DNA from: Candidatus Buchananbacteria bacterium
GTDB lineage: Bacteria > Patescibacteriota > Patescibacteriia > CAIXNZ01
NCBI GenBank assembly: GCA_030592165.1
Contig: JAUVKC010000001.1
Location: 1 to 35,444, forward strand
Length of the DNA: 35,444 nt
Direction of reading: 5' to 3'
The notes under the pieces are model-generated. The model had not been told where the DNA came from and did no database searches. It worked only from the letters and a program-made list of their open reading frames with translations. This document shows, one piece after another, positions 5,243 through 35,444 of the stretch. Each line of letters begins with the position of its first letter. The stretch's first letter is position 1. Position numbers and translations under genes: made by a program.

Positions 5243-5494
<252 letters not shown>

Positions 5495-5508
5495 TGATTT
5501 TTTACGTA

Positions 5509-5531
5509 AAGAGGAGAAATTTTCTCCTCTT
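5509..5531 (+). promoter_or_regulatory. Perfect 10-bp stem-loop just downstream of atpE (intercistronic stabiliser/attenuator candidate)
   Basis: AAGAGGAGAA-ATT-TTCTCCTCTT, 15 nt after the atpE stop. No U-run follows, so it is unlikely to be a full terminator. Confidence 0.5.
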
Positions 5532-5559
5532 AGGTAAGTAATTATTAAATTTCCAATCC

Positions 5560-5587
5560 CTAATTACTAATTTCTAATTACTAATTT
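5560..5587. repeat. Exact tandem duplication of the 14-mer CTAATTACTAATTT
   Basis: Copies at 5560-5573 and 5574-5587 are identical. A third exact copy lies inverted at 1681-1694. Confidence 0.85.
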
Positions 5588-5595
5588 TAAATTCT

Positions 5596-6108: not shown

Positions 6109-6490
6109 AGCAAAAATTTATGCTCAAGTTTTATATCAGTTATCTTGCGAGACTGATGATCTTGATAGTGTTTTAGCTAATTTTGTGAAGTTGTTAGTTT
6201 CCAGAAATCAATTAAGTTTGATTAATGAAATAATTAATGATTTCAAGCAAATTTATAATAAGAATGAAAATCAGGTTGATGCACAAGTAGTGACTCCTTT
6301 TGCTTTAGATAAAAACACAAAACACTTGATAGAAGATTTGATTAGGCAAATGAATACTGTGAAAAAAGTTGAATTAACAGAAATAATAGATAAAGAGTTG
6401 ATCGGTGGTTTGGTTGTTAATTTTGATGATACGCGAATTGATACTAGTATAAAAAAACAATTAAGTTTATTAAAAAATAATATTAAATAA
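6095..6490 (+). CDS. atpH: F-type ATP synthase subunit delta (short, ~131 aa)
   Basis: Operon position and the OSCP-like C-terminal 'LIGGLVVNFDDTRIDTSIKKQL'. I prefer the ATG at 6095 over the TTG at 6065. It overlaps the atpF end by 14 nt. Confidence 0.8.
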   Translation: MKKIKAKIYAQVLYQLSCETDDLDSVLANFVKLLVSRNQLSLINEIINDFKQIYNKNENQVDAQVVTPFALDKNTKHLIEDLIRQMNTVKKVELTEIIDKELIGGLVVNFDDTRIDTSIKKQLSLLKNNIK

Positions 6491-6496
6491 AAAAAT

Positions 6497-8017: not shown

Positions 8018-8024
8018 ATAGCAT

Positions 8025-9005: not shown

Positions 9006-9015
9006 TAATTAATAA

Positions 9016-10419
<1,404 letters not shown>

Positions 10420-10424
10420 CATTT

Positions 10425-10889
10425 ATGTCAGATAATAAAATACAATTAAAAATTGCCACGCCGGAAAGATTAGTTTTAGAGGAACTAGTTGATCAGGTTT
10501 CTTTACCGACTAAAAATGGTGAGGTTACTATTTTGCCAAATCATATCCCTTTGATAGCTGAGCTTGAGTTTGGTGAGCTTTTAGCTAAAAAAGGTGATGA
10601 AGACATGCCATTTGCTATTTGGGGTGGTTTAGTTGAAGTAAATGATAATACCGTGGTGGTTTTAAGTGATATTGCTGAATTTGCAGAAGAAATAAGTTTG
10701 GAAAAAGTAGAACAAGCCAAGCAAAAAGCTGAAGATTTAATGCAAAAAAAAGGTCAGTTTTCAGAACAAGAATTTGCAGATTTGCTTTATAGTTATCAAA
10801 AACATACGGCTTTATTGAAAGTGGGTAAGAAATTTCAAACAAAAAAATATAGAAAATTAGCCAATATAAAAAACAATTTTAAGAATTAA
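10425..10889 (+). CDS. atpC: F-type ATP synthase subunit epsilon, with a basic C-terminal tail
   Basis: Beta-sandwich N-terminal pattern 'LKIATPERLVLEELVDQVSLPTKNGEVTILPNHIPLI', last gene of the operon. Confidence 0.88.
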   Translation: MSDNKIQLKIATPERLVLEELVDQVSLPTKNGEVTILPNHIPLIAELEFGELLAKKGDEDMPFAIWGGLVEVNDNTVVVLSDIAEFAEEISLEKVEQAKQKAEDLMQKKGQFSEQEFADLLYSYQKHTALLKVGKKFQTKKYRKLANIKNNFKN

Positions 10890-20871: not shown

Positions 20872-23800
20872 ATGAATAAAGAAAAAATACAATTTAATCC
20901 TGAACAAAAAAAGGCGATTACTTATGGTAATGGTCCTGTTTTGATTATTGCTGGTGCTGGCACAGGTAAGACAATGGTTATTACTCAAAGAATTTCTCAT
21001 TTGATATTAGATAAAGATGTGAATACTGATGCGATTTTGGCTTTAACATTTACTGATAAAGCCGCAGAAGAAATGGAAGAAAGGGTGGATAAATTGTTGC
21101 CATATGGGTATGTGGATTTATGGATTTCTACTTTTCACTCGTTTTGTCAAAAAATTTTAGAACAGCATGCTCTTGATATTGGTTTGCCAAATGATTTTAG
21201 TTTGCTTAATCAGACCTCTAGCTGGCTTTTGGTCCGCAATAACCTGGATAAATTTAATTTGGATTATTATAAACCGCTTGGTAATCCAACCAAGTTTATT
21301 CATGCTTTACTTAAACATTTTTCGCGAGCTAAAGACGAAGAAATTTACCCTGACGATTATTTGGAATATGCTCAAAATTTAAAACAAAACAATGATACAT
21401 CAATGAGTGACGATTTGCTTGATGAGGAAGCCTTGAGAGTAACTGAAATTGCAGAGGCCTATCATGTTTATCAGAAATTATTAATTGATAATAATAGTTT
21501 AGATTTTGGTGATTTAATAAATTATACCTTAAAGCTACTACGCAAAAGACCAAAAATTTTAAAGAAATTGCAGGATCAGTTTGAATATGTTTTGTTAGAT
21601 GAATTTCAAGACACAAATATTGCTCAATATGAATTAGTTAAATTATTAGCAGGGGAGAAGAAAAATTTAACTGTTGTCGGTGACGACGATCAGTGTCTTC
21701 CTGGTAATAGTTTAATAAGTGTTCCAAACGGAAAGAAAAAAATTAAGGATTTTAAGGTTGGAGACGAAATCTTAACTGGAATTGGTAGAAGCCAGATAGG
21801 GATAAGCAGTGTAAGCAATGTTATTAAAAATAAAAAGAAAGTCAGGTATCTTGATATAAAAACAAAATCAGGTAAAAAAATTAGAGTTACTGATAATCAT
21901 AAAATGTTTGTTCATGTTTCAGATTGTAAAATTGAAAGATTTTATGTGTATTTGATGCATAGACAGGGGATAGGTTATCGGATTGGGATTACAAGAAGTT
22001 TAAAAACAAGGTTGCGACTGGAAAGATCCAGTGATAGTATTTTGGCGATTGCTAGTTTTGAAACTGAAAAAGAAGCCAGGTATTATGAAACATTTTTATC
22101 ATTAAAATATGGTATGCCAACTTCATGTTTTCAGCAAAGAAAAGGTTTAGTAATTGACAATGAGTACTTATCTAAGTTGTATTCAGAATTAGATGTTGAT
22201 AATGCTGTTCGAAAATTAAGTGAGGATCTTAATAAAGACTTAAGGTTTAATCATTTTAATTTATCGAGTGTTTTTCGTGGTAATAAGTCAAGAGTTAATG
22301 TGAATTTAGAAATATGTTCAAGAAGATATAAGATTAAGAAATTAACGAAATATTCAAAAAATTACGCAGTTTCTCATTTGTTGAGTTTAGAAACTTCAGA
22401 CTTAAAGATTGTTAATAAATTAAAAACCAGTGGGTATGAACTTAAAAAATCAAAAAAAGGCTGGCGATTTCGACTACAGTCTGCTGATTTAAATAAATTA
22501 ATAGAATTATCTGAAAAATTACAGCTTATAACTAATGGTATAAGGCAAGAAAAATTTAAGATAGGGACTTTAAATAAACAAAGTTTAGAAGCTATTGTCA
22601 TGCCAGCTAAAAACCTTGTTGCGGGGCTTTTTGTTCCTGTAGAAAAGGGTAATAAAATTTATTATGATGAAATAGTTGAATTAAAAGAATTGAAAATGAT
22701 TGATACGGTTTATGATTTGGAAGTTAAAAAAACTCATAATTTTATAGCCGATGAAGTGGTCGTTCATAATTCAATCTATAAATTTAGGGGAGCCTCTGTC
22801 TCAAATATTTTGCAGTTTAAAAAAGATTTTCCAGAAAGTCAGGAAATAGTTTTAACTCAAAATTATCGTTCAAAACAAGGTATTTTAGATGTATCATATA
22901 ATTTTATTCAGTTAAATAACCCTAATCGTTTAGAATATCAATTAAATAACAGTAAAAAGTCAAAAAGTATAAAGTTAGAAAGTAAAATTGATAAAAGATT
23001 AAAATCAAATAATAAAGGTAAGGCGATTGTTGAACATATTCATGAAAAAACATTAGATGAAGAGGTTAAGGCTATTTTGCACAAAATAGTTGAACTTAAG
23101 AATAAAGATAAAAATGTTACTTGGGACGACTTTGCTATTTTGGTCAGAGCTAATGATTCTGCAAATTCGTTTATAAGCTATTTGCGTCAATCAAATATCC
23201 CTTATCAATTTTTGGCTTTACGAGGTCTTTATAATAAGCCAATTATTCTTGATATTTTAGCTTATTTTAAATTGCTTGATAATTATCATGAGTCAACTGC
23301 TGTTTTTAGGATTTTATCATCACCAATAGTTGAAATTAGTCAGCAAGATATTATTAAGATTAATCATTATGCTTATAAAAAAACTCAGTCTTTATACGAA
23401 GTTTTAAAAGAAGTCAGAGCGGTTAAGGGTGTAACTGCAAAATCAATTTCCGAGATCAATCGTTTGTTGGGTATGATTGAAAAACATACTCAGTTGATCA
23501 AAGAAAAAACAATAGGCGAAATTTTCAAAGCATTTTTAGAAGATACTGATTATTTAGAAAAATTAGTTAGACGTGATGAGTATGAATCAAACCAAGCTAT
23601 TTCGTATCTAAATCAGTTTTATAAAAAGATCAAAGAATTTGAAGAAGAACAAGCTGATCCAAAATTAAAATTATTTATGGAAAAAATGGATTTGGAGCTT
23701 GAAGCTGGTGAAGAGGGGAGTCTTTCTTTGGATCTTGACATTGGTCCGGAAATGATAAAAATTATGACTATTCATGCAGCTAAAGGTCTTGAATTTAAAT

Positions 23801-24945
23801 ACGTTTTTATTCCCAATATGGTTGATCGTAGATTTCCAACAGGGGAACGTAAAGACCCGATTGAATTGCCAGCAAAATTAATTAAAGAAATAATTCCAGA
23901 GGGTGATATTCATTTGGAAGAAGAAAGAAGACTTTTTTATGTTGCCATGACCAGAGCTAAAGACGGATTATTTTTAACTTCAGCTGCTGATTATGGCGGT
24001 GTGAGAAAAAAGAAATTATCAAGATTTTTGGAAGAATTAATGCAGACAAATAAAGAATTCAAATTAGACAAAAGAGCAGGTGTGGAAAATAAAGACTTAA
24101 TTGAAATCACGGCTGAGACTAAAGAAATTAAAAAGAAAGATAAGTATGAATTACCTTCAAGGTTTTCGTACTCACAATTGGCTGGGTTTTCCAAATGTCC
24201 TTATCAATACAAATTAAGTTATATCATGAGAGTACCTATTTTTGGTAAAGCAGTATTTTCTTACGGAAAAACTATGCATGCGACATTGGAAGAGTTTTTT
24301 AAATTAGTAGTTGGGAAACAGCAGAGCAAACAAACTGATTTGTTTACAAAAAATAGCAAAAAGACTGGTAAACAGAAAATAGGTAATTTAGTGAGCTTTG
24401 ATGAATTAATGGGATTGTTTGAATCTGTTTGGCTGGATGAATGGTATGAAGATAAAGAACAAAAAGAAAAATATTATACTCAGGCCAAGAAAACATTGAA
24501 AATATTTTATAGCCAAATCAAAGATCAGGTAAATCAAACTGAAGATACTGAGAAACCCTTTAATCTGAAAATTGATAATTATACATTGAGGGGTGTTATT
24601 GATAGGATTGATAGGACTGAAAAAGGAGAGCTTGTTATTGTTGATTATAAGACTGGTAAACCAAAAGAACAGGGTAAATTAGGTCCTGAAGATAAAATGC
24701 AACTTTTAATTTATCAAATAGCTGCGGAAGAAGTTTTGCAAGAAAAGGTTGATAAATTGATTTACTATTATTTAGATAATAATTCTAGCGTAGAATTTAT
24801 TGGTCAGGAAAAAGATAAAGAAAAGGTGAAAAATAATATTAGTAATTTAATTAAAAAAATTAACCAATCAGATTTTGTAGCTACTCCGAATCATTTTATT
24901 TGTAAATTTTGTGATTTTAGTAAAATTTGTGAATTTAAGGTATAA
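20872..24945 (+). CDS. UvrD/PcrA/AddA-like SF1 DNA helicase fused to a C-terminal 4-Cys PD-(D/E)xK nuclease; interrupted by an intein
   Basis: Walker A 'AGAGTGKT', motif II 'LLDEFQDTN', and motif III split as 'VVGDDDQ'|intein|'SIYKFRGA'. Also 'QNYRS' and 'TIHAAKGLEF'. The nuclease carries 'VIDRIDR...IVDYKTGK', 'QLLIYQ' and cysteines 'SKCPYQY ... CKFCDFSKIC'. Confidence 0.9.
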   Translation: MNKEKIQFNPEQKKAITYGNGPVLIIAGAGTGKTMVITQRISHLILDKDVNTDAILALTFTDKAAEEMEERVDKLLPYGYVDLWISTFHSFCQKILEQHALDIGLPNDFSLLNQTSSWLLVRNNLDKFNLDYYKPLGNPTKFIHALLKHFSRAKDEEIYPDDYLEYAQNLKQNNDTSMSDDLLDEEALRVTEIAEAYHVYQKLLIDNNSLDFGDLINYTLKLLRKRPKILKKLQDQFEYVLLDEFQDTNIAQYELVKLLAGEKKNLTVVGDDDQCLPGNSLISVPNGKKKIKDFKVGDEILTGIGRSQIGISSVSNVIKNKKKVRYLDIKTKSGKKIRVTDNHKMFVHVSDCKIERFYVYLMHRQGIGYRIGITRSLKTRLRLERSSDSILAIASFETEKEARYYETFLSLKYGMPTSCFQQRKGLVIDNEYLSKLYSELDVDNAVRKLSEDLNKDLRFNHFNLSSVFRGNKSRVNVNLEICSRRYKIKKLTKYSKNYAVSHLLSLETSDLKIVNKLKTSGYELKKSKKGWRFRLQSADLNKLIELSEKLQLITNGIRQEKFKIGTLNKQSLEAIVMPAKNLVAGLFVPVEKGNKIYYDEIVELKELKMIDTVYDLEVKKTHNFIADEVVVHNSIYKFRGASVSNILQFKKDFPESQEIVLTQNYRSKQGILDVSYNFIQLNNPNRLEYQLNNSKKSKSIKLESKIDKRLKSNNKGKAIVEHIHEKTLDEEVKAILHKIVELKNKDKNVTWDDFAILVRANDSANSFISYLRQSNIPYQFLALRGLYNKPIILDILAYFKLLDNYHESTAVFRILSSPIVEISQQDIIKINHYAYKKTQSLYEVLKEVRAVKGVTAKSISEINRLLGMIEKHTQLIKEKTIGEIFKAFLEDTDYLEKLVRRDEYESNQAISYLNQFYKKIKEFEEEQADPKLKLFMEKMDLELEAGEEGSLSLDLDIGPEMIKIMTIHAAKGLEFKYVFIPNMVDRRFPTGERKDPIELPAKLIKEIIPEGDIHLEEERRLFYVAMTRAKDGLFLTSAADYGGVRKKKLSRFLEELMQTNKEFKLDKRAGVENKDLIEITAETKEIKKKDKYELPSRFSYSQLAGFSKCPYQYKLSYIMRVPIFGKAVFSYGKTMHATLEEFFKLVVGKQQSKQTDLFTKNSKKTGKQKIGNLVSFDELMGLFESVWLDEWYEDKEQKEKYYTQAKKTLKIFYSQIKDQVNQTEDTEKPFNLKIDNYTLRGVIDRIDRTEKGELVIVDYKTGKPKEQGKLGPEDKMQLLIYQIAAEEVLQEKVDKLIYYYLDNNSSVEFIGQEKDKEKVKNNISNLIKKINQSDFVATPNHFICKFCDFSKICEFKV
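21694..22770 (+). mobile_element. Intein (359 aa) in helicase motif III with a non-canonical, GIY-YIG-like endonuclease insert
   Basis: Starts with Cys1 ('CLPGNSLISV', block A). Block B is 'RVTDNHKMF', block F 'VYDLEVKKTHNFIA', and block G 'VVVHN' followed by +1 Ser. Removing it restores the canonical 'GDDDQSIYKFRGA'. Confidence 0.85.
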
Positions 24946-24975
24946 TTAAATAGTAATAATTAATCATTGAATAAA

Positions 24976-27540
24976 ATGAAACGAAAAAAAATATTAATAT
25001 TTTTTACATTTTTTAGTTTTATTGTGATTTGCATTATTTTCCAAAAAATTTCATTGGCAGCTACATTTGTTGAATCATTTATTGGCAACGACTACATTGA
25101 TAGTGCGAATACAACAGCAGATTGGGAAACTTCTACTACAACTGCCCATTTAATAAATGGTGAATGGCGACAATTAGATGGAGCTACTTCGCCTTATGTT
25201 TTTAAAGAAGAAGCTGTAACTGGGTTTACTGCTCCTAAACCAGATATTATTCATGATGCTAATAATCAGCCGTTAATTGTTTTTGATCAGACAATAGATA
25301 CAACAATGTCAGCTACAAAATGGAGTGTCGGTGCTGGTACGAGTGTCTGTGGTGCTGGTGTTACAGATTGCTGGACTGATTTATCTGGGACGACAAAAGG
25401 ATTGCATAATTCTGTTTTTAATTTGCCTGGGGGCGATTATGTTAATAGAAAAAGAATTGGCAGATTAAAAAATGGATATCCAGCCGTTATTTTTTCATAT
25501 TATAGTGTGGCAGGATCATATTATGAATTGCATTATATGCAATGGACACCAAATGCTGCGGATGGAGTGTGTAGCTCTGGTAATTCTTGCTGGACAAATG
25601 CTGCCAAAACAGCAGAAGGGTCAGAAAAAATTTCCAATAATAACATGACCGCACTTTCTAATTTTTACAAATCTTTTGATTTAGTTATGGATCAATATGA
25701 ACAACCAAATATCGTATGGAATGAGTATGATGGAACTAATCTATCATACCATTATACAAGATGGAATGGTTCAAATTGGACAAACGCTAATAGAACTACT
25801 ACAGGTAAACAACAACTAACTACAAAGGTAAGTAGTGATAATGCTGATTTAGAATTTATAATCAAAAATGGGGTTATTTATGTTGTTTTAAGATATGATG
25901 ATTATAATTATGTAGGTAAATGGAATGGTAGTAATTGGGTTAATTTGGCTGACACAACTTTTACTAATTATAGTGGTATGACAATTTTTAAAGCAGCTAA
26001 TAATTTAAACATTGGTATAGGTCAAAATAGAAAACGAAATTATTTAATGGTTGAGAATAATCAACTTTATCTAGGAATTAGTTCCTACACTACTGGCACG
26101 GCTGATAATTATTTAGCTTACTGGGATAATACTGTTGATACTTGGAAATATATCAATGGAACAACAATTGGCAATAATCAAACAGCTATTGATAATATGA
26201 ACGAATTATTTAATGGGGAGTCTTGGGATCTTCACGAATTGTACATGGTTAATCTGTCAGTTGATAAAAAAACAAATAATATTTTAATGTTGATGTCTAA
26301 TTATGATGGGGCAAGCTCGGAATTATATTTTTCACAATGGGATGGTAGTAATTGGAAACAACCAGATGGTGACACAGATGGCTATGAAGTTGCTAGTAAC
26401 TTAGTTTACGGTGGTAATTATAATACTTATTCATCAATAGCAATAGATAATTATGGTAAACCTATTTTTAGTTATGTTGATAGAGCTTATACCTCTCCCA
26501 ATAAAAATTTACCATTATATATAAGTAAATTTAATGGTAGCGATATAACTGGTGTTAATGATTATACTGCAAACAGAGATTTGATTGCTGATGATAACCA
26601 AAATTTAAGTACTGGACTATATTACCAGAGTTTATATTTCAATCAAGCTACTGAAGAAATATATTTTGCAGGTATGACTGGTGATGGTGGAATGCTTATT
26701 ACAAAATTTTTTGCAAATAAATACCCAGATCAGGACCAGGATGTTGTGTCTGATACTATTGCAGTTCCATATAATTCAGCTTCAGAGATAACATCTGCAA
26801 CATTAGTAGCAGAACATATTAAACCATCAGGCACAGATATAACATATTATTTAAGTGCAGATGGTGGTTCAAATTGGGAAAGCGTTACTAGTGGTGTAGC
26901 TCATAATTTTACTAATACTGGCGATGATTTGCGTTGGAAAGCTAATTTTACCTCAAGTAGCGAGGATAGTACTCCCACCATACAATATTTATATATAGAT
27001 GTTGATGGAAAAACAAAAGGGACTTCAGGAGATATTATTATAACAGCAGAAATAATACCATCATTAAGCTTGAATATTAATTCCACTACTTGTGATTTCG
27101 GAGTTTTTTCTGATACAAATATTAAAACATGCAGTTATGTAGTTACAGTTTCAACAAATGCAAGTGCTGGTTATATGGGATATATTCAAGAAGATCAGGA
27201 CTTACAAACTATAAATTCTAAAATAATTACAGATGTTGATGATAGTGCTGTAACTGGTGGTGGCACAGGTATTGATGAAGAATATGGCCTTTCAACAAGT
27301 GATTCATCTCAGGAAATTTCTGAAAATAATACAGGCTTAACTTGTGCACAATTAAATAATCAATCGTCTACAGCAATGCCAGCAACACCTTTAACAACTG
27401 ACAATCAAACCTTTGTAACCTCAACTTTACCAGTCGCTAGTGAAGAAACTACTTTGTGTCATTCCGCAGCAATTATTAGCAACACTCCAGCAGGTTCATA
27501 TTCTCATTCGGTTACAATTACAGTCGTTGGTAATTTTTAA
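24976..27540 (+). CDS. Large secreted surface protein: W-rich propeller-like repeats and a C-terminal WxL-like 4-Cys module (CscC-like)
   Basis: Signal peptide; I prefer the ATG at 24976 over the TTG at 24967. Repeated '[RKQ]W[ND]GSNW' and 'CWT[DN]' motifs. The last ~170 aa are paralogous to the C-terminus of the 32791-33798 product; both end in 'TPAGSY..[ST]VT[IV]TVVGNF'. Confidence 0.8.
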   Translation: MKRKKILIFFTFFSFIVICIIFQKISLAATFVESFIGNDYIDSANTTADWETSTTTAHLINGEWRQLDGATSPYVFKEEAVTGFTAPKPDIIHDANNQPLIVFDQTIDTTMSATKWSVGAGTSVCGAGVTDCWTDLSGTTKGLHNSVFNLPGGDYVNRKRIGRLKNGYPAVIFSYYSVAGSYYELHYMQWTPNAADGVCSSGNSCWTNAAKTAEGSEKISNNNMTALSNFYKSFDLVMDQYEQPNIVWNEYDGTNLSYHYTRWNGSNWTNANRTTTGKQQLTTKVSSDNADLEFIIKNGVIYVVLRYDDYNYVGKWNGSNWVNLADTTFTNYSGMTIFKAANNLNIGIGQNRKRNYLMVENNQLYLGISSYTTGTADNYLAYWDNTVDTWKYINGTTIGNNQTAIDNMNELFNGESWDLHELYMVNLSVDKKTNNILMLMSNYDGASSELYFSQWDGSNWKQPDGDTDGYEVASNLVYGGNYNTYSSIAIDNYGKPIFSYVDRAYTSPNKNLPLYISKFNGSDITGVNDYTANRDLIADDNQNLSTGLYYQSLYFNQATEEIYFAGMTGDGGMLITKFFANKYPDQDQDVVSDTIAVPYNSASEITSATLVAEHIKPSGTDITYYLSADGGSNWESVTSGVAHNFTNTGDDLRWKANFTSSSEDSTPTIQYLYIDVDGKTKGTSGDIIITAEIIPSLSLNINSTTCDFGVFSDTNIKTCSYVVTVSTNASAGYMGYIQEDQDLQTINSKIITDVDDSAVTGGGTGIDEEYGLSTSDSSQEISENNTGLTCAQLNNQSSTAMPATPLTTDNQTFVTSTLPVASEETTLCHSAAIISNTPAGSYSHSVTITVVGNF

Positions 27541-27578
27541 ATTTAGATAAAAATAAAATTTACGATATAATATACAAA

Positions 27579-28886
27579 ATGAAGAGAAAAATAAAATTAG
27601 CAATAAGAATTTTTATTTTTTTGATGATTATTAGTTTTTTATTGCCAAAAATTATTAGCGCGGCAAGTTTAACCGTTATGAGCGATAGGATGACACGGCA
27701 TGCACCTTTGACAGTTTCAGATCATGAAATAAAGTTTACTACTCCCAGTGGCGTAGGTGATTCTGGCCAATATATAAGAATATTGTTTGATTCTGGTTTT
27801 GATTTATCAAATATTGATTATACAGATATTGATTTAATGCATGGAGCTATCACAGGAGTTGAGTCTGATGAAACTTTAGATTCAATCGCAGATATTACTT
27901 CATGGGGAGTAAATATTGGTGTGAATAATATTGATTTTTCTCATCCAACAAATAATTTGAATGGTGATATATTACCTGGTGATAAAATTGTTATAAGAAT
28001 AGGCTTTAGTGCAAACGGAGGTGACCAGCAAATAATAAATCCCGCGATAATAGGTTCAAAAATAATTACCTTAACTGGAAATTATGGTGACTCTGGGAAG
28101 TTAGCAGTGGCTATTTTTCAAGATCAAGTCGGGGTTGGTGGTGAAACATCAGGGCTGGCTCCTGTGGCAGTAGTTTTAGATCCACCTTTTAATATCTTGA
28201 CCAATCAAATGGACTTAAGCTGGTCGCAAAATTTAAATAGTGATTTTGCTAATTATCAGGTTTATTACTCAACATCTCCTGGCTTAACTGATTTAACAGG
28301 AACATTGTTTTCTACAATCACTAATCAAACAACTCTTTCTTTGACTGTGACGGGATTAAATCCAAATACAATATATTATTATAAAGTTTATGTTTTTGAT
28401 ACTGAAGGTTTGAAAGTACCTTCAAATGAGGTCAGTGCGAAAACAAATTCTTCAGGATCTGGTTTGCCTCCCCAGCCACCTGTACCAACAGTTAGTAATG
28501 TAACTTGCCCGGTTTTTAAAACACCTGAATTTATTGAGGGTACTAGATCTCCTGGAACCTCAGTTTTTGTAAATTATTCAAATTCAAATGTCACTTATCC
28601 TGGTGTAAGTTCTTGGGAAGCCTTAGTTAATTTTGTTATGGGTAGTAATGTTGTAAATGTTTTTGTTCAAGATGGCTTAGGTCAGACAAGTAATACTTTG
28701 TCAGTAAATATTTTCCGTTGGGAAATAGGGGATACAAATGGCAGTGATATAATTGATGATTTTGACTTGGCTGGGATTGCTTGGCATTGGCAAGGTGATT
28801 GGTGCCAAGGAGATTTTAATAAAGATGATTTTATTGATGATTTTGATCTAGCTGGTTTAGCTGCTCATTGGGATAATGTTTATTGA
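27579..28886 (+). CDS. Secreted protein with an FN3 domain and a C-terminal dockerin-like module
   Basis: Signal peptide 'IISA-AS'. FN3-like 'LSWSQNLNSDFANYQVYYSTSPG...YYYKVYVFD'. Duplicated calcium-loop segments 'GDTNGSDIIDDFDLAGIAWHW' and 'GDFNKDDFIDDFDLAGLAAHW' (28728-28883). Confidence 0.8.
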   Translation: MKRKIKLAIRIFIFLMIISFLLPKIISAASLTVMSDRMTRHAPLTVSDHEIKFTTPSGVGDSGQYIRILFDSGFDLSNIDYTDIDLMHGAITGVESDETLDSIADITSWGVNIGVNNIDFSHPTNNLNGDILPGDKIVIRIGFSANGGDQQIINPAIIGSKIITLTGNYGDSGKLAVAIFQDQVGVGGETSGLAPVAVVLDPPFNILTNQMDLSWSQNLNSDFANYQVYYSTSPGLTDLTGTLFSTITNQTTLSLTVTGLNPNTIYYYKVYVFDTEGLKVPSNEVSAKTNSSGSGLPPQPPVPTVSNVTCPVFKTPEFIEGTRSPGTSVFVNYSNSNVTYPGVSSWEALVNFVMGSNVVNVFVQDGLGQTSNTLSVNIFRWEIGDTNGSDIIDDFDLAGIAWHWQGDWCQGDFNKDDFIDDFDLAGLAAHWDNVY

Positions 28887-28888
28887 TG

Positions 28889-29037
28889 AGAATTTAGAAT
28901 TAAGAGTTTAAGAATTAAGAGTTTTAGAATATAGAATATAGAATTTAGATTTAAGTGTTTAAGAATTTAGAATTTAGAATATAGATTTAAGTGTTTAAGA
29001 ATATAGAATTTAGAATTAAGAATAAATAATTGTAGAA
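28889..29037. repeat. Degenerate tandem array of ~20 heptamer/octamer units T-W-W-A-G-A-R, with higher-order 15-nt and 36-nt repeats
   Basis: It fills the whole intergenic gap. GAATTAAGAGTTT occurs twice (28897, 28912). The 21-mer TAGATTTAAGTGTTTAAGAAT occurs exactly twice (28946, 28982), within 36-nt units that are 34/36 identical. Confidence 0.85.
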
Positions 29038-29041
29038 TAAA

Positions 29042-31843
29042 ATGCGAAGATTAGCAAAAATTAGTTTGGGTATAATTATAAGCTTTTGGATTTTTTCCAT
29101 GATGGCTAGTCTTAACCCTGCTTTAGCTGCAGGTAATGCTATTATGATTTTAACATCAGTAAGAACTGATTATTATGTTGGTGAAACAATTTACATTGAT
29201 ATAGAGGTTCAGACAAATGGAGAAAGTATTAATACAGTTCGTGCTCTAATGGATTTTACCGGCGGAGATGTTTTGCTGATTGATGATTTTGATTTGGGTA
29301 CTGCTTGGCCAAATTTAAGTCCTGGACAAAGTCTTGATAATATTTTGGATACTATAAATGTTGGAGGGTTTATCTTTGTTGATTCTGTCACCCAGGATTC
29401 TTTATTCGGAACTTTAGTTTTTACTGCTAATCAAGTTGGTTCTTCAACTATTAATTTTGCTTCAGGATCTCATTTGATTTCGCCTGATATTGTTGAAAGA
29501 TTAAATTTAGCTGGGTCACAGGGGATTACAATTAATGTTGCTGAACCAGTCATCCCAAATGTACCACCAACTGTTTTGAGTTCCAATATTGAGGTTACAA
29601 TTAATCAAGAAGGTACAACAACTGTAACTGCTTTTGATTCTGATGGTGATAATGTGACAATTACTTGGGATGCAATTAATAATTCATATTTTAGTAACCC
29701 TGTATCAGGTCAGGCTGCATCTGTAGATTTCACTTGGACACCAACTGAAATTGGTGATTTTAGTTTTCCTTTCTATGCTACTGACGACGGTCCTGATTCA
29801 TTAATTACCCAAGGTTTTGTTAATGTTAGTGTAGTAGATGAAGTTATTGTTATTGAAGAAAATTTTGCTCCTATATTTCAGCCAGAATCAAATAAATCAG
29901 TTGAAATAGGGCAAGAAATTAGTTTTCAAGTTTTAGTAACAGACCCTGATGGTGATAATGTGAATTTAACCTGGGATGTCCCAGCAGAAGCAATTATTTC
30001 CAATATAAACAATAATACAACTACGGTAACCGTAAATTTTCGTTGGATTCCAAATGAACAAGGGTCGTTTCCCGTAAATTTTTATGCTACAGATGATAAT
30101 CCTGATAATCCTAAAAATTCAATTTTAACAATAATTATAAATGTTTCTATTCCTGATCCGCTAGAAAATCAGTCACCAGTTTTTATACCTGTTGCTAATC
30201 AATTGATTGATTTGGGCGAAACCATCACCTTTAATGTCCAGGCAACAGATCCTGATGGTGATAATGTTGATTTATCCTGGAATTTACCTTCAGGATCAAG
30301 TTTTACGAATGTTACTAGTGGAATTAGTGCCAATGGTACTTTTAGCTGGTTACCGTCTCAAGAAGGCGTTTATACCTTAATTTTTAGTGCAACTGATGAT
30401 AATATTGATAATCCATTAACAACTGATTTAGTGGTTAGCTTAGGAGTTTCTGTGCCTCCCTTGGAACCTAATGATCCACCTGAATTTGCTAATATTACAG
30501 AAAAAACAATTAATGCAAACGAAGTAATAACATTTGAAGTGTCAGCTACAGATCCTGATGGTGATAATGTTAGTTTAACAATGGAGAGTTTCCCGGGAGC
30601 AAATTTTTCTGTTTTAACTGAGGGCAATACATCGGTCAGTAATTTTAGTTGGAAGCCACAAAATTTTGGTATTTATTATGTAGTTTTCAATGCCACAGAT
30701 GATCGTGCTGATAATAACCTAACTAAGAGTAGAAGTGTTAGAATTACTGTTTTTGGCGGTGAATGTCCTCCTTGTGGAGGTGGTGCTTGCGTAGAATTAG
30801 TTTTAACATGTGATGAGGTTGCTGAAATACCAATAACTGAAGTTATTCCAGATAAAACCTTACCAATAATTACCTCACCATCGCATCCACATGAGGCTTT
30901 TTGGTATGCTAATGCTAAGCCGCAATTTGTTTGGGATATTGATGATGTTGGTATTCTTGGTTATAATTTTAATCTCGATGAGATCCCATATCATGAACCA
31001 ACAAAAGTTTATTCATATAGTCAGAGTAAATTTTTTGCATTTTCTGAAGTAAATGATGGGTTTTGGTATTTTCATTTAAAAACAAGATATGAAGATGGTT
31101 GGGGACCAACAGCTCACTATCAAGTAAAGATTGACACAACACCACCAGATTTTTTCAGACCATCACTTGAAGAAAATGAATTGTATTTTTCAGCTGTAGA
31201 TAAACATTCAGGTGTGGCTTATTATGATATAAAAATTGATCAAGGCTATTGGCAAAGAGCAACTAGTCCGTTGAATTTGAATGAATTTCATGGACAAGGA
31301 GATCGTCTGATTTTAAGAGCAGTTGACAATGTAGGTAATGCAATCGAAAGCAATGTAGATTTAATTAAAAATGAAGTTTTAGAAGAAGAGGTACAAAAAA
31401 TATATATTTTAGAAGATTTTAGCAGAATAATTGAGCCACCATTTATTGAAAAAATTAGTTATAAACAAATACGAGATAAATTATTTAAGCACGATTATTT
31501 AATTGTTTCTGGTATTTCAGAGCCAAATGCCCAAGTTACTATATATTTATCAACTGAACCTGAGTCAATATTTTCTACTAAAGCAGATAAAAGCGGTATT
31601 TGGGAAGCAAAATATGAAATAGAACTAAAAAACCAAGAATATAGCATATATTCAATTGCTACAATTAATAATATTAATTCTTTACCTTCAGAAAAGATAT
31701 ATTTCACTTTCCAAAAAATTAAAGGCATCTCATGGTATTATTACTGGTTTATCATTTTAATTTGGTTAATAATTTTGTTGCTTTTATGGAAATTAAAAGT
31801 ATATATTCATGAATATTTGAAAAAAAAATTCGATAATAATTAA
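29042..31843 (+). CDS. Membrane-anchored scaffold-like surface protein: cohesin-like N-terminal domain, 4 He_PIG/cadherin-like repeats, Cys knot, C-terminal TM anchor
   Basis: Signal peptide. Cohesin-like beta-sandwich at ~29130-29540 ('VGETIYIDIEVQTNGESINTVRALMDF...LFGTLVFTANQVGSSTINF'). Four ~100-aa repeats each carry '[AV]TDPDGDNV.L.W' and 'F.W.P...G.....F.ATDD'. Also 'GGECPPCGGGAC' and a C-terminal TM 'WYYYWFIILIWLIILLLLW' followed by a basic tail. Confidence 0.8.
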   Translation: MRRLAKISLGIIISFWIFSMMASLNPALAAGNAIMILTSVRTDYYVGETIYIDIEVQTNGESINTVRALMDFTGGDVLLIDDFDLGTAWPNLSPGQSLDNILDTINVGGFIFVDSVTQDSLFGTLVFTANQVGSSTINFASGSHLISPDIVERLNLAGSQGITINVAEPVIPNVPPTVLSSNIEVTINQEGTTTVTAFDSDGDNVTITWDAINNSYFSNPVSGQAASVDFTWTPTEIGDFSFPFYATDDGPDSLITQGFVNVSVVDEVIVIEENFAPIFQPESNKSVEIGQEISFQVLVTDPDGDNVNLTWDVPAEAIISNINNNTTTVTVNFRWIPNEQGSFPVNFYATDDNPDNPKNSILTIIINVSIPDPLENQSPVFIPVANQLIDLGETITFNVQATDPDGDNVDLSWNLPSGSSFTNVTSGISANGTFSWLPSQEGVYTLIFSATDDNIDNPLTTDLVVSLGVSVPPLEPNDPPEFANITEKTINANEVITFEVSATDPDGDNVSLTMESFPGANFSVLTEGNTSVSNFSWKPQNFGIYYVVFNATDDRADNNLTKSRSVRITVFGGECPPCGGGACVELVLTCDEVAEIPITEVIPDKTLPIITSPSHPHEAFWYANAKPQFVWDIDDVGILGYNFNLDEIPYHEPTKVYSYSQSKFFAFSEVNDGFWYFHLKTRYEDGWGPTAHYQVKIDTTPPDFFRPSLEENELYFSAVDKHSGVAYYDIKIDQGYWQRATSPLNLNEFHGQGDRLILRAVDNVGNAIESNVDLIKNEVLEEEVQKIYILEDFSRIIEPPFIEKISYKQIRDKLFKHDYLIVSGISEPNAQVTIYLSTEPESIFSTKADKSGIWEAKYEIELKNQEYSIYSIATINNINSLPSEKIYFTFQKIKGISWYYYWFIILIWLIILLLLWKLKVYIHEYLKKKFDNN
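29555..30790 (+). repeat. Four in-frame tandem ~300-nt (100-aa) Ig/cadherin-like repeats inside the scaffold gene
   Basis: The DNA word 'gatcctgatggtgataatgt', or a near-identical variant, recurs at ~29640, 29943, 30249 and 30552. Confidence 0.75.
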
Positions 31844-31847
31844 TATT

Positions 31848-32573
31848 ATGATAAGAAGTTATAAAAAATATTTTAGCAAAATAGTAATATTTATTGCAAT
31901 ATTGATTATTTTGGTTTTAGTTCAACAGGTTAACGCAACTATGTCCAGCAATAATTATAATATTTGGATTGATACTTTTAGTGGTGGAGGAGGGGACTTG
32001 TCATCGTCGAATTATCAAATTGATTCAAGTATTTCCTTTGAACAGGGTGCAACATCTGCCAGTGCAAATTTTTCTGAAATAGCAGCATTTAGCGCTATTG
32101 ATGATGAGCCTACTGTTGGTTTTAGTATTCAGTCAGTAACCCTTAATTTTGGTGAATTATCTCCAAGTGGGACTGCTTATGATACTCATACGTTTTCAGC
32201 TTATACAAACGCTCAGGAAGGCTATACAATCAAAGTCTATGGAGATCCCTTGAATAATGTTAACCATACATTAGCAGGAATAGGTTCAACATCAGCTCAA
32301 TCACAGTCTGGCGCAGAGCAATTTGGCATTAATTTAGTGGCTAATACAGTCCCCATATCTGGAGCTAATCCGTCAGGAGGTATTGGTCAATCATCTGCAA
32401 ATTATGATACAAGTAATTATTTTGCTTATGCCTCTGGTGATATTATTGCTCAGGCTGCTAGCTATTCATATCAAACAGATTTTACAACAACAGTTATTGT
32501 AAATATTTCTGAAGAAACTCCTGCTGGTGCATATACTACAGTTTTAACTTATGAATTTATACCGGTTTTTTAA
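31848..32573 (+). CDS. Secreted small WxL-like-module protein (CscB-like, divergent, no Cys)
   Basis: Signal peptide 'VQQVNA-T' and duplicated 'SSNNY.I'/'SSSNYQI' motifs. The C-terminal module 'LNFGELS...TNAQEGYTIKVYGD...AEQFGINL...TPAGAYTTVLTYEFIPVF' aligns with the modules at 27030-27540 and 33283-33798. Confidence 0.7.
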   Translation: MIRSYKKYFSKIVIFIAILIILVLVQQVNATMSSNNYNIWIDTFSGGGGDLSSSNYQIDSSISFEQGATSASANFSEIAAFSAIDDEPTVGFSIQSVTLNFGELSPSGTAYDTHTFSAYTNAQEGYTIKVYGDPLNNVNHTLAGIGSTSAQSQSGAEQFGINLVANTVPISGANPSGGIGQSSANYDTSNYFAYASGDIIAQAASYSYQTDFTTTVIVNISEETPAGAYTTVLTYEFIPVF

Positions 32574-32732
32574 TTTATTGAAAGTTGTCCACATAGCAGA
32601 TGGAGAAAAATTTATCATTTTCTGCTATACTTATGTCATGATAACTCTTACTTATTTAAGATGTGGAAAACTTTTTAGATTACAAAATATAATGAAAATA
32701 AAAAGTAATAAATATTAATAATTTACATATAG

Positions 32733-32760
32733 CCAAATTAAAAATTTGGTTGTTTATAAT
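32733..32760 (+). promoter_or_regulatory. Perfect palindrome CCAAATT-AAA-AATTTGG next to a consensus TATAAT
   Basis: The palindrome is at 32733-32749 and TATAAT at 32755-32760, 31 nt upstream of the ATG of the putative major subunit gene. No good -35 is present, so the palindrome sits where an activator or repressor would bind. Confidence 0.35.
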
Positions 32761-32790
32761 GTTTTAAAATTAATAAATAACTAATAATTT

Positions 32791-33798
32791 ATGAAAAGTA
32801 GATTTAAGTTAATTTCTTTTTTGGGGATATTTTTGATCCTAGCAATGATTGTTTCATTAGTATCACCAATATTAAATGTTGCTGAGGCGGCTCAAATGAC
32901 AAGTGTTACTTGGGTTTCAAATGATTACATCACAGCTTCTACAACTGCTACCTGGACAATTACTTTCACAGCAACTACTTTGACTGATGGAGATAGAATT
33001 GTTTTAACATTTGCCGAAGAAGATAGTTCAGCTGTTACTACCACTGCAGGAAATATTTCTGCTCAGGGTGATATTGCTTTTACTACAGTTGGAACAATAA
33101 CAACCTCAGGTGGAGTAGTTACTATTCCAATTACTACTGTAGGAGCTGCAGTAGCACCTTATGTAGTAACTATAACAGGGAACACAAACAGAGCTAGTGC
33201 TGGATCTCAAGCGTTATCTTTAGTAACAGATGATGGTTCAACAGACATTGATACAGGGGCAGCTGCTATGTATGCAATAGGTGATAATACAGTGGATATT
33301 ACAGGAACAGTTGATCCAACATTGAGTTTGGTATTAAGTGCTACTTCATGTGATTTAGGTGTTTTAACTTCATCTACAATTGAAACTTGTAGTTATAGTA
33401 CGACTGTAACAACAAACGCTACAAGTGGTTATACTGGTTATTTACAATCAGATGCCGGTTTAGTAAGTGGTTCAAATGAAATAAACGCTGTGGCTGATGC
33501 TGCGGTAACTGCTGCTGCGGAAGAATATGGTGTGGGAACTGATACTACTGATACTGTTGGTGCTACCTTTATTGATTACGCAGCTACTGATACATGTGCA
33601 AACTTAGATGCTGGTACTACAGCGGTTCCAACTGGCGGTCTTAATAATTCAGCTCAGTCATATGTTACTGCCTCTGCTCCTGTAGATGGAAGTTCAACCG
33701 GAGTAACTACCCTATGTCATGCAGCTGCTATTACTGGAACAACTCCAGCCGGTTCATACACTCAAACAGTGACAGTCACTGTAGTGGGTAATTTCTAA
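32791..33798 (+). CDS. Putative major surface/fibre subunit: T/A/G/V-rich secreted protein with C-terminal WxL-like 4-Cys module (CscB-like)
   Basis: Signal peptide 'NVAEA-AQ'. The mature part is almost free of Lys/Arg and rich in T, A, G, V and S. The C-terminal module has Cys at 'TSCDLG', 'ETCSY', 'DTCANL' and 'TLCHAAA', ending in 'TPAGSYTQTVTVTVVGNF'. A 217-nt upstream region gives it its own promoter. Confidence 0.8.
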   Translation: MKSRFKLISFLGIFLILAMIVSLVSPILNVAEAAQMTSVTWVSNDYITASTTATWTITFTATTLTDGDRIVLTFAEEDSSAVTTTAGNISAQGDIAFTTVGTITTSGGVVTIPITTVGAAVAPYVVTITGNTNRASAGSQALSLVTDDGSTDIDTGAAAMYAIGDNTVDITGTVDPTLSLVLSATSCDLGVLTSSTIETCSYSTTVTTNATSGYTGYLQSDAGLVSGSNEINAVADAAVTAAAEEYGVGTDTTDTVGATFIDYAATDTCANLDAGTTAVPTGGLNNSAQSYVTASAPVDGSSTGVTTLCHAAAITGTTPAGSYTQTVTVTVVGNF

Positions 33799-33839
33799 AA
33801 TAAATTATTAAATAATTAAAAATTAAAAAAGGGGAAAAT

Positions 33840-34829
33840 ATGAAAACAAAAATATTTGGATTTATGGTAGCTATCCTACTTGGTGTACTATTACTGCCAT
33901 TAGCAGGTAATGCTATCACAGTATCACCACCGATAATTGAGATTGAAGCTGTTCGGGGTGATGTTATTAGTCAAATTTTAAAAGTTAGAAACGAAAATAC
34001 TTCAGCTGTAACTTATTATCTTAGTGCTGAAAGATTTATCGCTGGTGGTGAAGAAGGACAGCCTCAGTTTATTGGAGAAGATATCGGGCTTTCAACTTGG
34101 CTGAATTTCCCAGTTGATAGTGTGACAATTCCTGGTGGTGAAACAGTAGAAATACCATTTACAATTGCTATCCCAAATTTTGCTGGTCCTGGAGGACATT
34201 ATGCTGCTATTTTTTTAAGCACCTTACCTCCTGATAGTGTTGCAGGCGGATCACAGGTTTCTATAGCTCAAAAGATTGGAACATTAGTATTAGTAAGAAT
34301 TGCTGGTGATATTAAAGAAGGATCATCAGTTGCTGAATTTGAAGCAGTAGCTGATACATTTGATTCTTTACCAGTTGATTTTAATCTTAGAATTGAAAAC
34401 ACAGGTAATGTTCATGTGAAACCAATGGGTACAATTTTATTAAAGAATATGTTTGGTTCTGTTGCTGGTCAGGTTGCAGTTAATGAAACAGGTGGTAATG
34501 TTTTACCAGACCAAATTCGTAAATTTACACCTTCATGGGTAAAAAATCCAAATGCTGTTGGTGCTTCTAGTTTTTGGGGTAAATATAGAGAACAAAGGGA
34601 AAATTATGCTTTTGGTAAATATAATGCAGATTTAACATTAGCTTATGGTACTGCAGGAAAAGTTTTAACTGGTGATGCCAGTTTTTGGGTGATTCCTTGG
34701 AACATTATTATAGTTAATCTGATTATCTTAGTAATCCTAGTTGTAATTCTTTATTATCTAGTTAAGAAATATAATGCTTGGTTATTGACTAAGTATGGAA
34801 AGAAAAGCCCAAAATCAGCAAAAAAATAG
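33840..34829 (+). CDS. CscA-like (DUF916 + DUF3324-like) two-Ig-domain protein with signal peptide and C-terminal TM anchor
   Basis: SD 'AAAGGGGAAAAT-ATG'. 'AITVSPPIIEIEAVRGDVISQILKVRNENTSAVTYYLS', 'TIPGGETVEIPFTIAIP...GGHYAAIFL' and a second domain 'FNLRIENTGNVHVKPMGTILLKN...VLPDQIRKF...GKYNADLTL'. TM 'IIIVNLIILVILVVILYYLV' is followed by a K-rich tail. Confidence 0.7.
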   Translation: MKTKIFGFMVAILLGVLLLPLAGNAITVSPPIIEIEAVRGDVISQILKVRNENTSAVTYYLSAERFIAGGEEGQPQFIGEDIGLSTWLNFPVDSVTIPGGETVEIPFTIAIPNFAGPGGHYAAIFLSTLPPDSVAGGSQVSIAQKIGTLVLVRIAGDIKEGSSVAEFEAVADTFDSLPVDFNLRIENTGNVHVKPMGTILLKNMFGSVAGQVAVNETGGNVLPDQIRKFTPSWVKNPNAVGASSFWGKYREQRENYAFGKYNADLTLAYGTAGKVLTGDASFWVIPWNIIIVNLIILVILVVILYYLVKKYNAWLLTKYGKKSPKSAKK

Positions 34830-34868
34830 GATTTAATTGATTTAGATTTAGAATATATCTTAAAATAG

Positions 34869-34907
34869 TAAGAAGGGCTTCATTAAATGGGTCCTTCTTA
34901 TTATTTA
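34869..34907 (+). terminator. Stem-loop/terminator candidate after the CscA-like gene
   Basis: TAAGAAGGGC (34869-34878) pairs with GGTCCTTCTTA (34890-34900); 10 bp including one G-U pair. A T-rich 'TTATTT' follows. The loop is long (12 nt), so confidence is moderate. Confidence 0.45.
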
Positions 34908-34912
34908 AATGT

Positions 34913-35311
34913 ATGAAGAAATATTATTTTGTCATAGTTATTATATGTTTAGTCTTTACTGCTAATTTTATTTTTTTGTCGGTTGGCTTTGGTCAGCCTG
35001 GTGTTAATATTGGCGGGTATGTGCCTTTAACATCAGAAAATCATGAGTCTACTTTAAATTCTATAAATGATTCTTCTGTAAATATTCAACAAGTAAAATT
35101 TAAAGAAAATAAGTATTTGTATTATTTTGAAAAAGCTTCAGAAGAAAAATCTAAAAAAGTTTTGGTTCAGACTGATTATGATAAATTTTCAAGTTATGGG
35201 TTAATGGTTTTAGTCTTAATTATTTTTGCTATAATATTATTACTATTGCTTCATTTTAATGAGAAATTTTGGCGTAATACTAAGATTAAATCAAGTGATT
35301 TAAAAATATGA
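34913..35311 (+). CDS. Small bitopic protein (N-terminal signal/TM and C-terminal TM anchor with basic tail)
   Basis: 132 aa with hydrophobic segments at both ends ('YFVIVIICLVFTANFIFLSV' and 'LMVLVLIIFAIILLLLL'). It occupies the position of the small anchored CscD-type protein but has no LPxTG. Confidence 0.55.
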   Translation: MKKYYFVIVIICLVFTANFIFLSVGFGQPGVNIGGYVPLTSENHESTLNSINDSSVNIQQVKFKENKYLYYFEKASEEKSKKVLVQTDYDKFSSYGLMVLVLIIFAIILLLLLHFNEKFWRNTKIKSSDLKI

Positions 35312-35444
35312 AAAATAAAATATTGATTAATGCTTCTATTTTAGTTTTGGTATTTATTTTATCGTATTTTATTTTGCATATTGTTAACGCTGGTCTTGTT
35401 AGTAATTTTTCAGATGAAATAGATTCACATTTAATTTCATCGGC
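35308..35444 (+). CDS. 5' part of a further secreted/membrane protein, truncated by the window end
   Basis: The ATG at 35308 overlaps the preceding TGA (ATGA). The translation is MKNKILINASILVLVFILSYFILHIVNAGLVSNFSDEIDSHLISS..., a signal peptide followed by 'NFSDE'. Confidence 0.5.
   Translation, partial: MKNKILINASILVLVFILSYFILHIVNAGLVSNFSDEIDSHLISS

Follow-up and report, generated by a model that had tools for sequence, protein, structure and literature searches.

The window analysed here is a stretch of 35,444 nucleotides from a Candidatus Buchananbacteria bacterium (assembly GCA_030592165.1, contig JAUVKC010000001.1, positions 1 to 35,444). At its right end it carries a predicted pilus operon in which a dockerin-bearing gene directly precedes a cohesin-bearing gene. 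As assigned with custom hidden Markov models (HMMs), the gene order from 24967 to 35444 was: giant pilin, dockerin protein (435 aa), cohesin protein with a transmembrane (TM) helix (933 aa), PamT-like protein, pilin, TM chaperone-like protein, small TM protein and the start of a further pilin (Table 1). An earlier note, made from the sequence alone, had proposed a cohesin-dockerin pair at this locus; the open reading frames (ORFs) and peptide segments that it quoted were all found in place.

Table 1. Features of the dockerin- and cohesin-bearing region and of the upstream double-dockerin gene (AF2, AlphaFold2; pLDDT, predicted local distance difference test score; CTD, C-terminal domain; Ig, immunoglobulin; TRF, Tandem Repeats Finder).
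Feature	Position	Strand	Basis or remark
Secreted double-dockerin protein, 689 aa	16502..18571		two dockerins at aa ~218-275 and ~293-350; seven TIGR04275 beta-propeller repeats
Giant pilin, 857 aa	24967..27540	+	large N-terminal region, linker, Pam-type acceptor CTD at aa 701-857
Dockerin-bearing pilin-derived protein, 435 aa, signal peptide aa 1-28	27579..28886	+	proposed pilus terminator/adaptor; AF2 pLDDT 83
Pam-pilin-type N-terminal beta-sandwich domain, aa 29-180	27663..28118	+	homology to true pilins; pLDDT ~90
Conserved linker FQDQVGVGGE, collinear with pilin donor strand	28119..28148	+	alignment
FN3 domain, aa ~195-290	28161..28448	+	Pfam fn3, 39.2 bits
Ig-like domain (X-module-like), aa 306-381, always precedes dockerin	28494..28721	+	AF2 strands
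Compact dockerin, aa 382-435, two Ca-loop and helix repeats, 27 residues apart	28722..28883	+
Heptamer tandem repeat AGAATTT, ~19 copies	28889..29023	.	TRF and sequence
Membrane-anchored cohesin stalk protein, 933 aa, signal peptide aa 1-27	29042..31843	+
Cohesin domain, aa 28-170	29123..29551	+	AF2, Foldseek, profile, Pfam of relatives
About four PKD/Big_9 Ig-like repeats, aa ~175-570, stalk	29564..30751	+	Pfam PKD 68 bits, Big_9 49.7 bits
SHP...WYFH beta-sandwich and OmpL47-type Ig domain, aa ~595-775	30824..31366	+	NCBIfam barrel_OmpL47, 32.5 bits
C-terminal TM helix, aa ~895-920, then short basic tail	31724..31801	+	sequence; hydrophobic-window scan
PamT-like tip pilin, acceptor domain only	31848..32573	+	NCBIfam
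Pilin, 335 aa, linker and acceptor CTD	32791..33798	+	custom CTD HMM, E 1e-57
TM-anchored chaperone-like protein, 329 aa, PamC/D position	33840..34829	+	C-terminal TM; homology
Small conserved TM protein, 132 aa, one TM helix	34913..35311	+	in 7 related loci, orthologues follow the chaperone gene
Start of further pilin, ATG at 35308, MKNKILINASILVLVFILSYFILHIVNAGLVSNFSDEIDSHLISS..., leaves the window at its right edge	35308..35444	+	translation

The Pam system was described in Candidatus Mycosynbacter amalyticus in a 2026 preprint (Troman et al., bioRxiv 10.64898/2026.03.03.709456). According to that preprint, Pam pilins are composed of an N-terminal domain, a single linker strand and a truncated Ig-like CTD, and they polymerise by donor-strand exchange, the linker strand of one subunit filling the groove of the adjacent one. 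PamT, which has a groove only, is the proposed tip; PamC and PamD are chaperones of PapD-like type that carry a TM helix; and the RbmA-like PamR, in which an N-terminal strand is combined with two FnIII domains and a TM helix, is the proposed terminator and membrane anchor. Pam pili have no dedicated usher, and ATP synthase genes are characteristically found near their operons. The preprint, whose emphasis is on Saccharimonadia and Microgenomatia, mentions neither cohesin nor dockerin. Pam proteins were searched for here with the NCBIfam models NF058578/79/81, of which NF058578 (PamR) has an equivalog cutoff of 300 bits.

The PamT-like protein scored 134 bits with CPR_Pam_pilin_C (cutoff 55) and, at 162.7 bits, missed the PamT equivalog cutoff of 240; its architecture and position matched PamT. 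The CTD of the 857-aa giant pilin was recognised by the custom pilin-CTD HMM (E 6e-58) and scored only 25.4 bits with CPR_Pam_pilin_C, while the 335-aa pilin reached 31 bits, likewise under the cutoff. Orthologues of the giant pilin occupied the matching position in six related loci (L003-L008), and no PDB or Pfam relative was found for its N-terminal region. The chaperone-like protein, with its C-terminal TM helix, was homologous to the chaperone-position gene of PamR-type operons (E 1e-26 to 1e-45) and displayed a weak fn3_5 match in Pfam. ATP synthase genes (4180-10889) lay ~14 kb upstream of the operon, in agreement with the co-localisation characteristic of Pam. The PamA and PamB structures (25PZ, 25QA) were not detectable in the PDB copy searched. 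Judging from these homologies, the cohesin and dockerin genes both lie inside a Pam-type donor-strand-exchange pilus operon.

Like the published system, the operon appears to combine an acceptor-only tip pilin of PamT type, pilins in which a linker strand joins the N-terminal domain to a truncated Ig-like CTD, a chaperone-like protein ending in a TM helix and a neighbouring ATP synthase operon, and both are restricted to bacteria of the Candidate Phyla Radiation (CPR). It differs in lacking PamR and in displaying, upstream of PamT, a protein joining a pilin N-terminal domain to a dockerin and a protein joining a cohesin to a TM helix. Operons of the window type also encode giant pilins of 670-890 aa, together with divergent PamT and pilin CTDs. 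Relatives of the proteins studied were found in Candidatus Buchanan-, Uhr- and Falkowbacteria and in unclassified 'Parcubacteria' metagenome-assembled genomes; all of these belong to the Parcubacteria group of Patescibacteria/CPR, and this clade is a further difference from the published system.

The 435-aa protein ended in ...GDTNGSDIIDDFDLAGIAWHWQGDWCQGDFNKDDFIDDFDLAGLAAHWDNVY, a tail that the earlier note had taken for a dockerin with duplicated calcium loop, and the family to which it belongs bore this out. The family was a tight group of 430-450 aa proteins in CPR bacteria of the Parcubacteria group. Single-sequence scans were weak, so that family profiles were needed for both the dockerin and the cohesin: the whole 435-aa protein gave no Dockerin_1 match in the Pfam scan, and a PDB phmmer search with its tail retrieved dockerins at E ~0.6-0.75 only. 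Dockerin_1 was nevertheless the best Pfam family for 17 of the 18 family tails (best E 9.2e-6), and the best PDB matches of the family profile were dockerins (2vn6_B, 2jnk, 2vn5_B, 2y3n_B, 2mte and 1daq). The two loops (D385-D396 and D412-D423) displayed the tandem ligand pattern D1, N3, D/N/S5, D9 and D12 followed by a helix; positions 1, 3, 5, 9 and 12 were conserved in both, and AF2 placed a helix behind each loop (394-402 and 421-434). The last 54 residues were also the most conserved part of the protein (mean pairwise identity 0.77 vs 0.51). On this family-level evidence the tail is classed as a predicted dockerin of Dockerin_1 type.

The FN3 domain appeared dispensable, being absent from variants of 332-334 aa, while the Ig-like domain and the dockerin were always retained. 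Two cysteines were invariant in the family alignment, C310 in the Ig-like domain (28506-28508) and C409 between the dockerin repeats (28803-28805). A second, covarying pair read 'RC..GDTNC' in most members and 'RW..GDTNG' in the window protein and a small number of others. This pattern suggests disulfides that clamp the dockerin onto the preceding Ig-like domain. One homologue of 521 aa (P0039) carried an extra canonical dockerin (GDVNGDYKVDQTDYDL...GDINQDGVIGPSDH...) behind its family-type tail, which places two subtypes on one pilin-derived protein. A Foldseek search with the model of the whole 435-aa protein retrieved only tandem arrays of FN3 and Ig domains and was uninformative on the dockerin and the pilin domain.

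The N-terminal domain of the 933-aa protein, named a cohesin in the earlier note on its strand pattern, was modelled by AF2 with a pLDDT of 96.3 and a predicted TM-score of 0.87. All of the top 50 Foldseek matches in the PDB were cohesins (probability 1.00, TM-score up to 0.78), including the non-cellulosomal cohesins of A. fulgidus and C. perfringens, and the model displayed the nine-stranded flattened beta-sandwich with jelly-roll topology. As modelled, the domain is a true cohesin fold. Single-sequence searches with it (Pfam, NCBIfam, PDB phmmer) gave no match. A word-index homology search retrieved just two relatives; an exhaustive search with residues 28-180 returned 165 cluster representatives, in which the domain almost always followed the signal peptide directly. 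Pfam Cohesin was matched by 38 of the 45 homologous segments sampled (best E 1.8e-10), and four relatives (P0086, P0071, P0093 and P0069) exceeded its gathering cutoff on their own, with 29.7-40.7 bits. The family profile matched cellulosomal cohesins in the PDB (1g1k, E 2.7e-5), with further matches to 5g5d, 2vn5_A and 4uyp.

The wider cohesin family displayed a common chassis of cohesin, SHP...WYFH domain, Ig domain and TM helix, whose SHP...WYFH/Ig motifs were also present in cohesin-TM proteins of ~400 aa (P0067, P0069 and P0071). Judging by its domain composition, the 933-aa protein is this chassis with PKD repeats inserted. A hydrophobic helix at its C-terminus agreed with the membrane anchor claimed earlier. 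The cohesin was the most conserved module (mean pairwise identity 0.67 vs 0.44 for its protein) and the PKD repeat stalk the least conserved (0.32); the number of repeats varied, and protein lengths ranged from 737 to 933 aa. The conservation of cohesin and dockerin above the rest of their proteins was far beyond chance.

The 435-aa protein was related to pilins. Partial matches to it included true pilins (P0046, P0047 and P0051), which share its N-terminal domain and end in a ...TGNF acceptor domain. A pilin with this N-terminal domain was encoded in every related operon (those of L004, L007, L008 and L010 included), and by comparison with the 344-aa pilins of L004 and L007 the pilin starting at the right edge of the window belongs to the same class. 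The linkers aligned collinearly, DQVG-VGGE in the 435-aa protein with DQFS-ISGTV, DSVS-LQAEV and DNVI-VNASI in pilins; beyond them, pilins continued into the acceptor domain and the 435-aa family into FN3. Within the family D182 was invariant and Q183, G185, V186 and G188 were conserved at ≥90%. The linker was also the sole internal segment left unstructured in the AF2 monomer (pLDDT <50). High conservation without intramolecular packing is the pattern expected of a strand meant for a partner's groove. By alignment, the 435-aa protein is thus a pilin derivative that kept the N-terminal domain and the donor-type linker, its acceptor CTD being replaced by FN3, Ig-like domain and dockerin. Having a donor strand and no groove, such a subunit could only be the last one added.

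The gene order was fixed. Dockerin gene, cohesin/TM gene and PamT followed one another in ten of ten related genome loci (L001-L010), the first two of these genes being separated by a small insert of 221 aa in two near-identical Buchananbacteria assemblies. The same order was found in five metagenome loci (L040-L043 and L047). PamR was absent from the window and from the ten related genome loci: NF058578 gave no match at E<=1 in the eight window proteins scanned (all operon genes except that of the 132-aa protein), and a custom PamR-like HMM gave none at E<=1 in six-frame ORFs of the window and of L001-L010. The 933-aa and 435-aa proteins were also considered as divergent forms of PamR, which was rejected because neither was similar to the PamR models.

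Two more distant PamT operons in genomes (L036 and L037) displayed the layout of the published system, in the order ATP synthase, minus-strand gene, PamT, two pilins, chaperone and a TM protein of 301 or 335 aa. With 392 and 353 bits, these TM proteins exceeded the equivalog cutoff of 300 for PamR. Neither locus contained a cohesin or dockerin in any frame. A metagenome census was based on a PamT alignment with 499 relatives, the best 80 of which were kept; loci were counted as fully covered when enough flank was available on both sides. Among these best 80, 18 loci were fully covered, ten with PamR, three with the cohesin-dockerin genes, none with both and five with neither. Partially covered loci added eight of PamR type and five bearing a cohesin, again none with both. 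Combined, the best 80 comprised 18 PamR-type loci and eight with cohesin and/or dockerin, to which two genome loci with PamR and the genome set with cohesin and dockerin are added. PamR and the cohesin-dockerin genes were mutually exclusive throughout.

A related cohesin-dockerin module seems to be present in an unrelated genome (L038, GCA_964373615.1, 1877-5471), where two cohesin-TM genes (490 and 408 aa) flanked a 288-aa secreted protein. The latter carried the same cassette of Ig-like domain and short dockerin as the 435-aa protein (BLASTP 2e-11; Dockerin_1 25.7 bits). Its N-terminus displayed PamT-like 'SDNFxI' repeats, and a gene of 1470 aa followed.

We propose that the two proteins together form a split PamR, in which a pilin-derived terminator would plug by its dockerin into the cohesin of a membrane-anchored Ig stalk; this is a reading to which we give an even chance. 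In this reading the linker strand of the 435-aa protein would enter the groove of the preceding subunit and so end the fibre. As its own groove-bearing CTD is lost, nothing could be added after it, and it would be the last, cell-proximal subunit. Its Ig-like and dockerin end would plug, in a calcium-dependent manner, into the cohesin, the outermost domain of the 933-aa protein, whose stalk of Ig-like repeats would be held in the membrane by the C-terminal helix. The two chains would together replace the single-chain PamR, stopping growth and tying the pilus to the cell. Observed here are the folds and families, the descent from pilins, the constant gene order and the exclusivity towards PamR; binding of the dockerin by this cohesin, donation of the linker and the role in anchoring are inferred. 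Load would reach the dockerin at its N-terminal side and the cohesin at its C-terminal side, as in the native geometry of the CttA XMod-Doc:CohE complex (PMC4266597). The further proposition, that the bond between cohesin and dockerin bears the load of a donor-strand-exchange pilus held on the cell and that a modular split PamR evolved in one CPR clade, is made more guardedly, its chances being put slightly below even.

Several points weigh against a split PamR. Both modules of the window fell short of Pfam: the dockerin tail scored 16.9 bits (E 0.0073) with Dockerin_1 (PF00404, gathering score 22.9 bits), and the cohesin domain gave no match to Cohesin (PF00963, gathering score 24.1 bits) even at E<=10. 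As homologues of the latter do match, its membership rests on transitive homology. The Pfam and profile comparison recommended in the earlier note was thus negative for the two window copies and positive for family members and profiles, which were Cohesin and Dockerin_1. Typical dockerins are ~60-70 aa long with repeats separated by a linker helix; at 54 aa, with a repeat period of 27 residues and only five residues (QGDWC) between repeats, the present one is unusually short. The poorly modelled linker could be a mere flexible tether. Five fully covered PamT operons (L050, L055, L058, L085 and L100) displayed neither PamR nor cohesin or dockerin, so that either anchor kind is not obligatory or other forms are possible; these loci represented a third, simpler design in which PamT was directly followed by the chaperone. 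PamR, moreover, sits after the chaperone and the cohesin and dockerin genes before PamT, so that they are not positional equivalents, and the mutual exclusivity may in part reflect phylogeny (clade-specific operon types) and not functional replacement. The role of PamR is itself an AlphaFold-based proposal from one preprint (bioRxiv 10.64898/2026.03.03.709456). As to L058, a 553-aa protein with a pilin N-terminal domain and with neither acceptor domain nor dockerin was encoded just upstream of its PamT.

The same observations were weighed under three other explanations. The membrane cohesin might be a generic scaffold that shows dockerin-tagged adhesins (the 435-aa and perhaps the 689-aa protein) for host attachment independently of the pilus, operon linkage reflecting co-expression. 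Real cohesin and dockerin modules would be expected here too, most of the ~165 clusters with an N-terminal cohesin on the same TM chassis lay outside visible pilus context, no pilins were seen in the 10 kb available around the L038 genes, where cohesin-TM genes flank a dockerin protein, and the window encodes a second dockerin protein. We nevertheless regard such a scaffold as unlikely: a plain adhesin has no need of a pilin N-terminal domain with a conserved donor-type linker, and these features in a protein without acceptor domain favour pilus anchoring or termination over generic display. Every related operon moreover keeps the gene pair between pilin genes, and the pair is mutually exclusive with PamR, while the 689-aa protein is no conserved neighbour and its dockerins are of another subtype. 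The earlier note had preferred surface display to a cellulosome; its non-cellulosomal, membrane-anchored character stood, and the free-standing display scaffold gave way to a fixed part of a Pam-type operon. That the stalk is instead an assembly platform, recruiting the dockerin subunit in an usher-like or nucleating role or as a length or termination checkpoint, within a transient complex from which the pilus is released or otherwise held, seems improbable. It would share the context evidence of the split PamR, the missing usher of Pam pili leaves room for it, and the five operons with neither system indicate that anchoring is possible otherwise. A filament that grows as later subunits donate their strands, however, cannot start from a subunit without acceptor groove, and a long variable Ig stalk with a distal cohesin suits an envelope spacer better than a membrane-proximal assembly site. 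Most improbable of all, in our estimate, is that the two modules are not partners, the tail being a calcium-binding stabiliser or binding another cohesin, and the cohesin-like domain being an Ig-like adhesin or carbohydrate binder on the tip of the stalk. The subthreshold Pfam scores, the many cohesin paralogues in such genomes and the atypically short dockerin would agree with this. Yet the genes were strictly adjacent in every operon examined, the Ig-like and dockerin cassette adjoined cohesin genes in the unrelated genome L038, cohesin and dockerin were the most constrained parts of their proteins, and only one cohesin was found in the 35-kb window.

A split PamR can be compared with known anchors and terminators. 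Non-cellulosomal cohesins and dockerins are already known, as is the Pam pilus, the latter from one preprint; a literature search retrieved no paper connecting cohesin-dockerin modules with CPR pili or with any pilus. In cellulosome anchoring pairs (R. flavefaciens CttA XMod-Doc:ScaE cohesin, PMC4266597; C. thermocellum type II Coh-XDoc, 2b59 and 5k39), as in the window, the cohesin is cell-bound and of matching fold, the dockerin stands C-terminally behind an Ig-like module, and the direction of pull would be the same. The CttA XMod-Doc:CohE anchor is mechanostable and withstands 600-750 pN (PMC4266597). The window pair differs in that its anchor is a TM helix in place of a sortase motif or SLH domains, in that its cargo is a pilin-like subunit in place of a scaffoldin or carbohydrate-binding module (CBM) protein, with no glycoside hydrolases (GHs), and in its 54-aa dockerin with a 5-residue inter-repeat linker.

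Non-cellulosomal modules (the A. fulgidus cohesin 2xdh; the cohesins 2jh2, 2vo8 and 2w1n and the dockerin 2jnk/2ozn of C. perfringens toxin complexes) likewise act outside plant cell wall degradation and were among the best structural and sequence matches of the window modules. They join enzymes or proteins of unknown role, and none belongs to a pilus operon or carries a pilin domain. With PapH of P pili, PamR of Pam pili and the basal pilins of sortase pili, the proposed system would share a last, non-extendable subunit and retention at the cell surface. It would differ in splitting termination and membrane anchoring over two non-covalently joined chains, and in doing so with neither usher nor sortase and with no TM helix on the terminator.

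The 689-aa protein further upstream indeed carried the two canonical dockerin modules foreseen in the earlier note. It passed Dockerin_1 in a single-sequence Pfam scan (26.8 bits vs 22.9), the second module reaching 33.7 bits, and its dockerins matched the profile of the 435-aa family only marginally, being of a different sequence subtype. The gene was absent near all ten related operons. As part of the present module the protein was thus rejected, being neither conserved nearby nor of the same dockerin subtype; it is probably cargo of some other cohesin, and no such partner was found in the window. The earlier note's tally of three dockerins to one cohesin is therefore not meaningful. Its view that the dockerin carriers are non-enzymatic and the pair non-cellulosomal held, no GH or CBM family being detected in any protein scanned. 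Membership in a cellulosome was likewise rejected, given this absence, the single cohesin and the nature of the carriers (pilin/FN3 and beta-propeller proteins). The gene behind the 689-aa protein (18586-20553) encoded a membrane protein with Wzy_C (O-antigen-ligase-like) domain and TPR repeats.

The window had a GC content of ~30% and all its genes were on the + strand. Its housekeeping genes included those for MetRS, TatD, RNase HII and the F-type ATP synthase (4180-10889). Directly upstream of the operon, a UvrD/PcrA-type helicase-nuclease of 1357 aa (20872-24945) bore an intein (~21685-22790; Pfam Intein_splicing at aa 289-633, Hint at aa 272-353); its orthologues upstream of related operons were ~1000 aa long and had no intein. 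Almost the whole intergenic spacer that separates the dockerin gene from the cohesin gene consisted of the heptamer repeat, which could be regulatory or serve as a length-variable switch. Other short degenerate repeats occupied the equivalent spacer in L003 and L007 (AATAGGT-like) and in L008 (AGTCCGAAG-like). Scans for promoters and terminators gave matches at chance level only, and no family assignment was obtained for the 132-aa TM protein.

CPR bacteria (Patescibacteria) are thought to live attached to host cells, with their surface filaments as prime candidates for making contact. How a Pam pilus is held on a cell with no outer membrane, usher or sortase rests at present on one predicted protein, PamR, and the locus would offer a second, differently built solution to pilus retention. 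If the cohesin-dockerin bond does hold the pilus, the pair would be the first of its kind to take part in building or anchoring a pilus, and pili or other dockerin-tagged cargo might be swappable on one anchor. Confirmation would carry cohesin-dockerin biology beyond enzyme assembly into the anchoring of filaments, with a natural example of a pilus anchor that is modular, non-covalent and possibly mechanostable. Sequence markers (pilin N-terminal domain with Ig-dockerin; cohesin with SHP/WYFH chassis and TM helix) would then also be available for annotating hundreds of 'hypothetical' CPR surface proteins.

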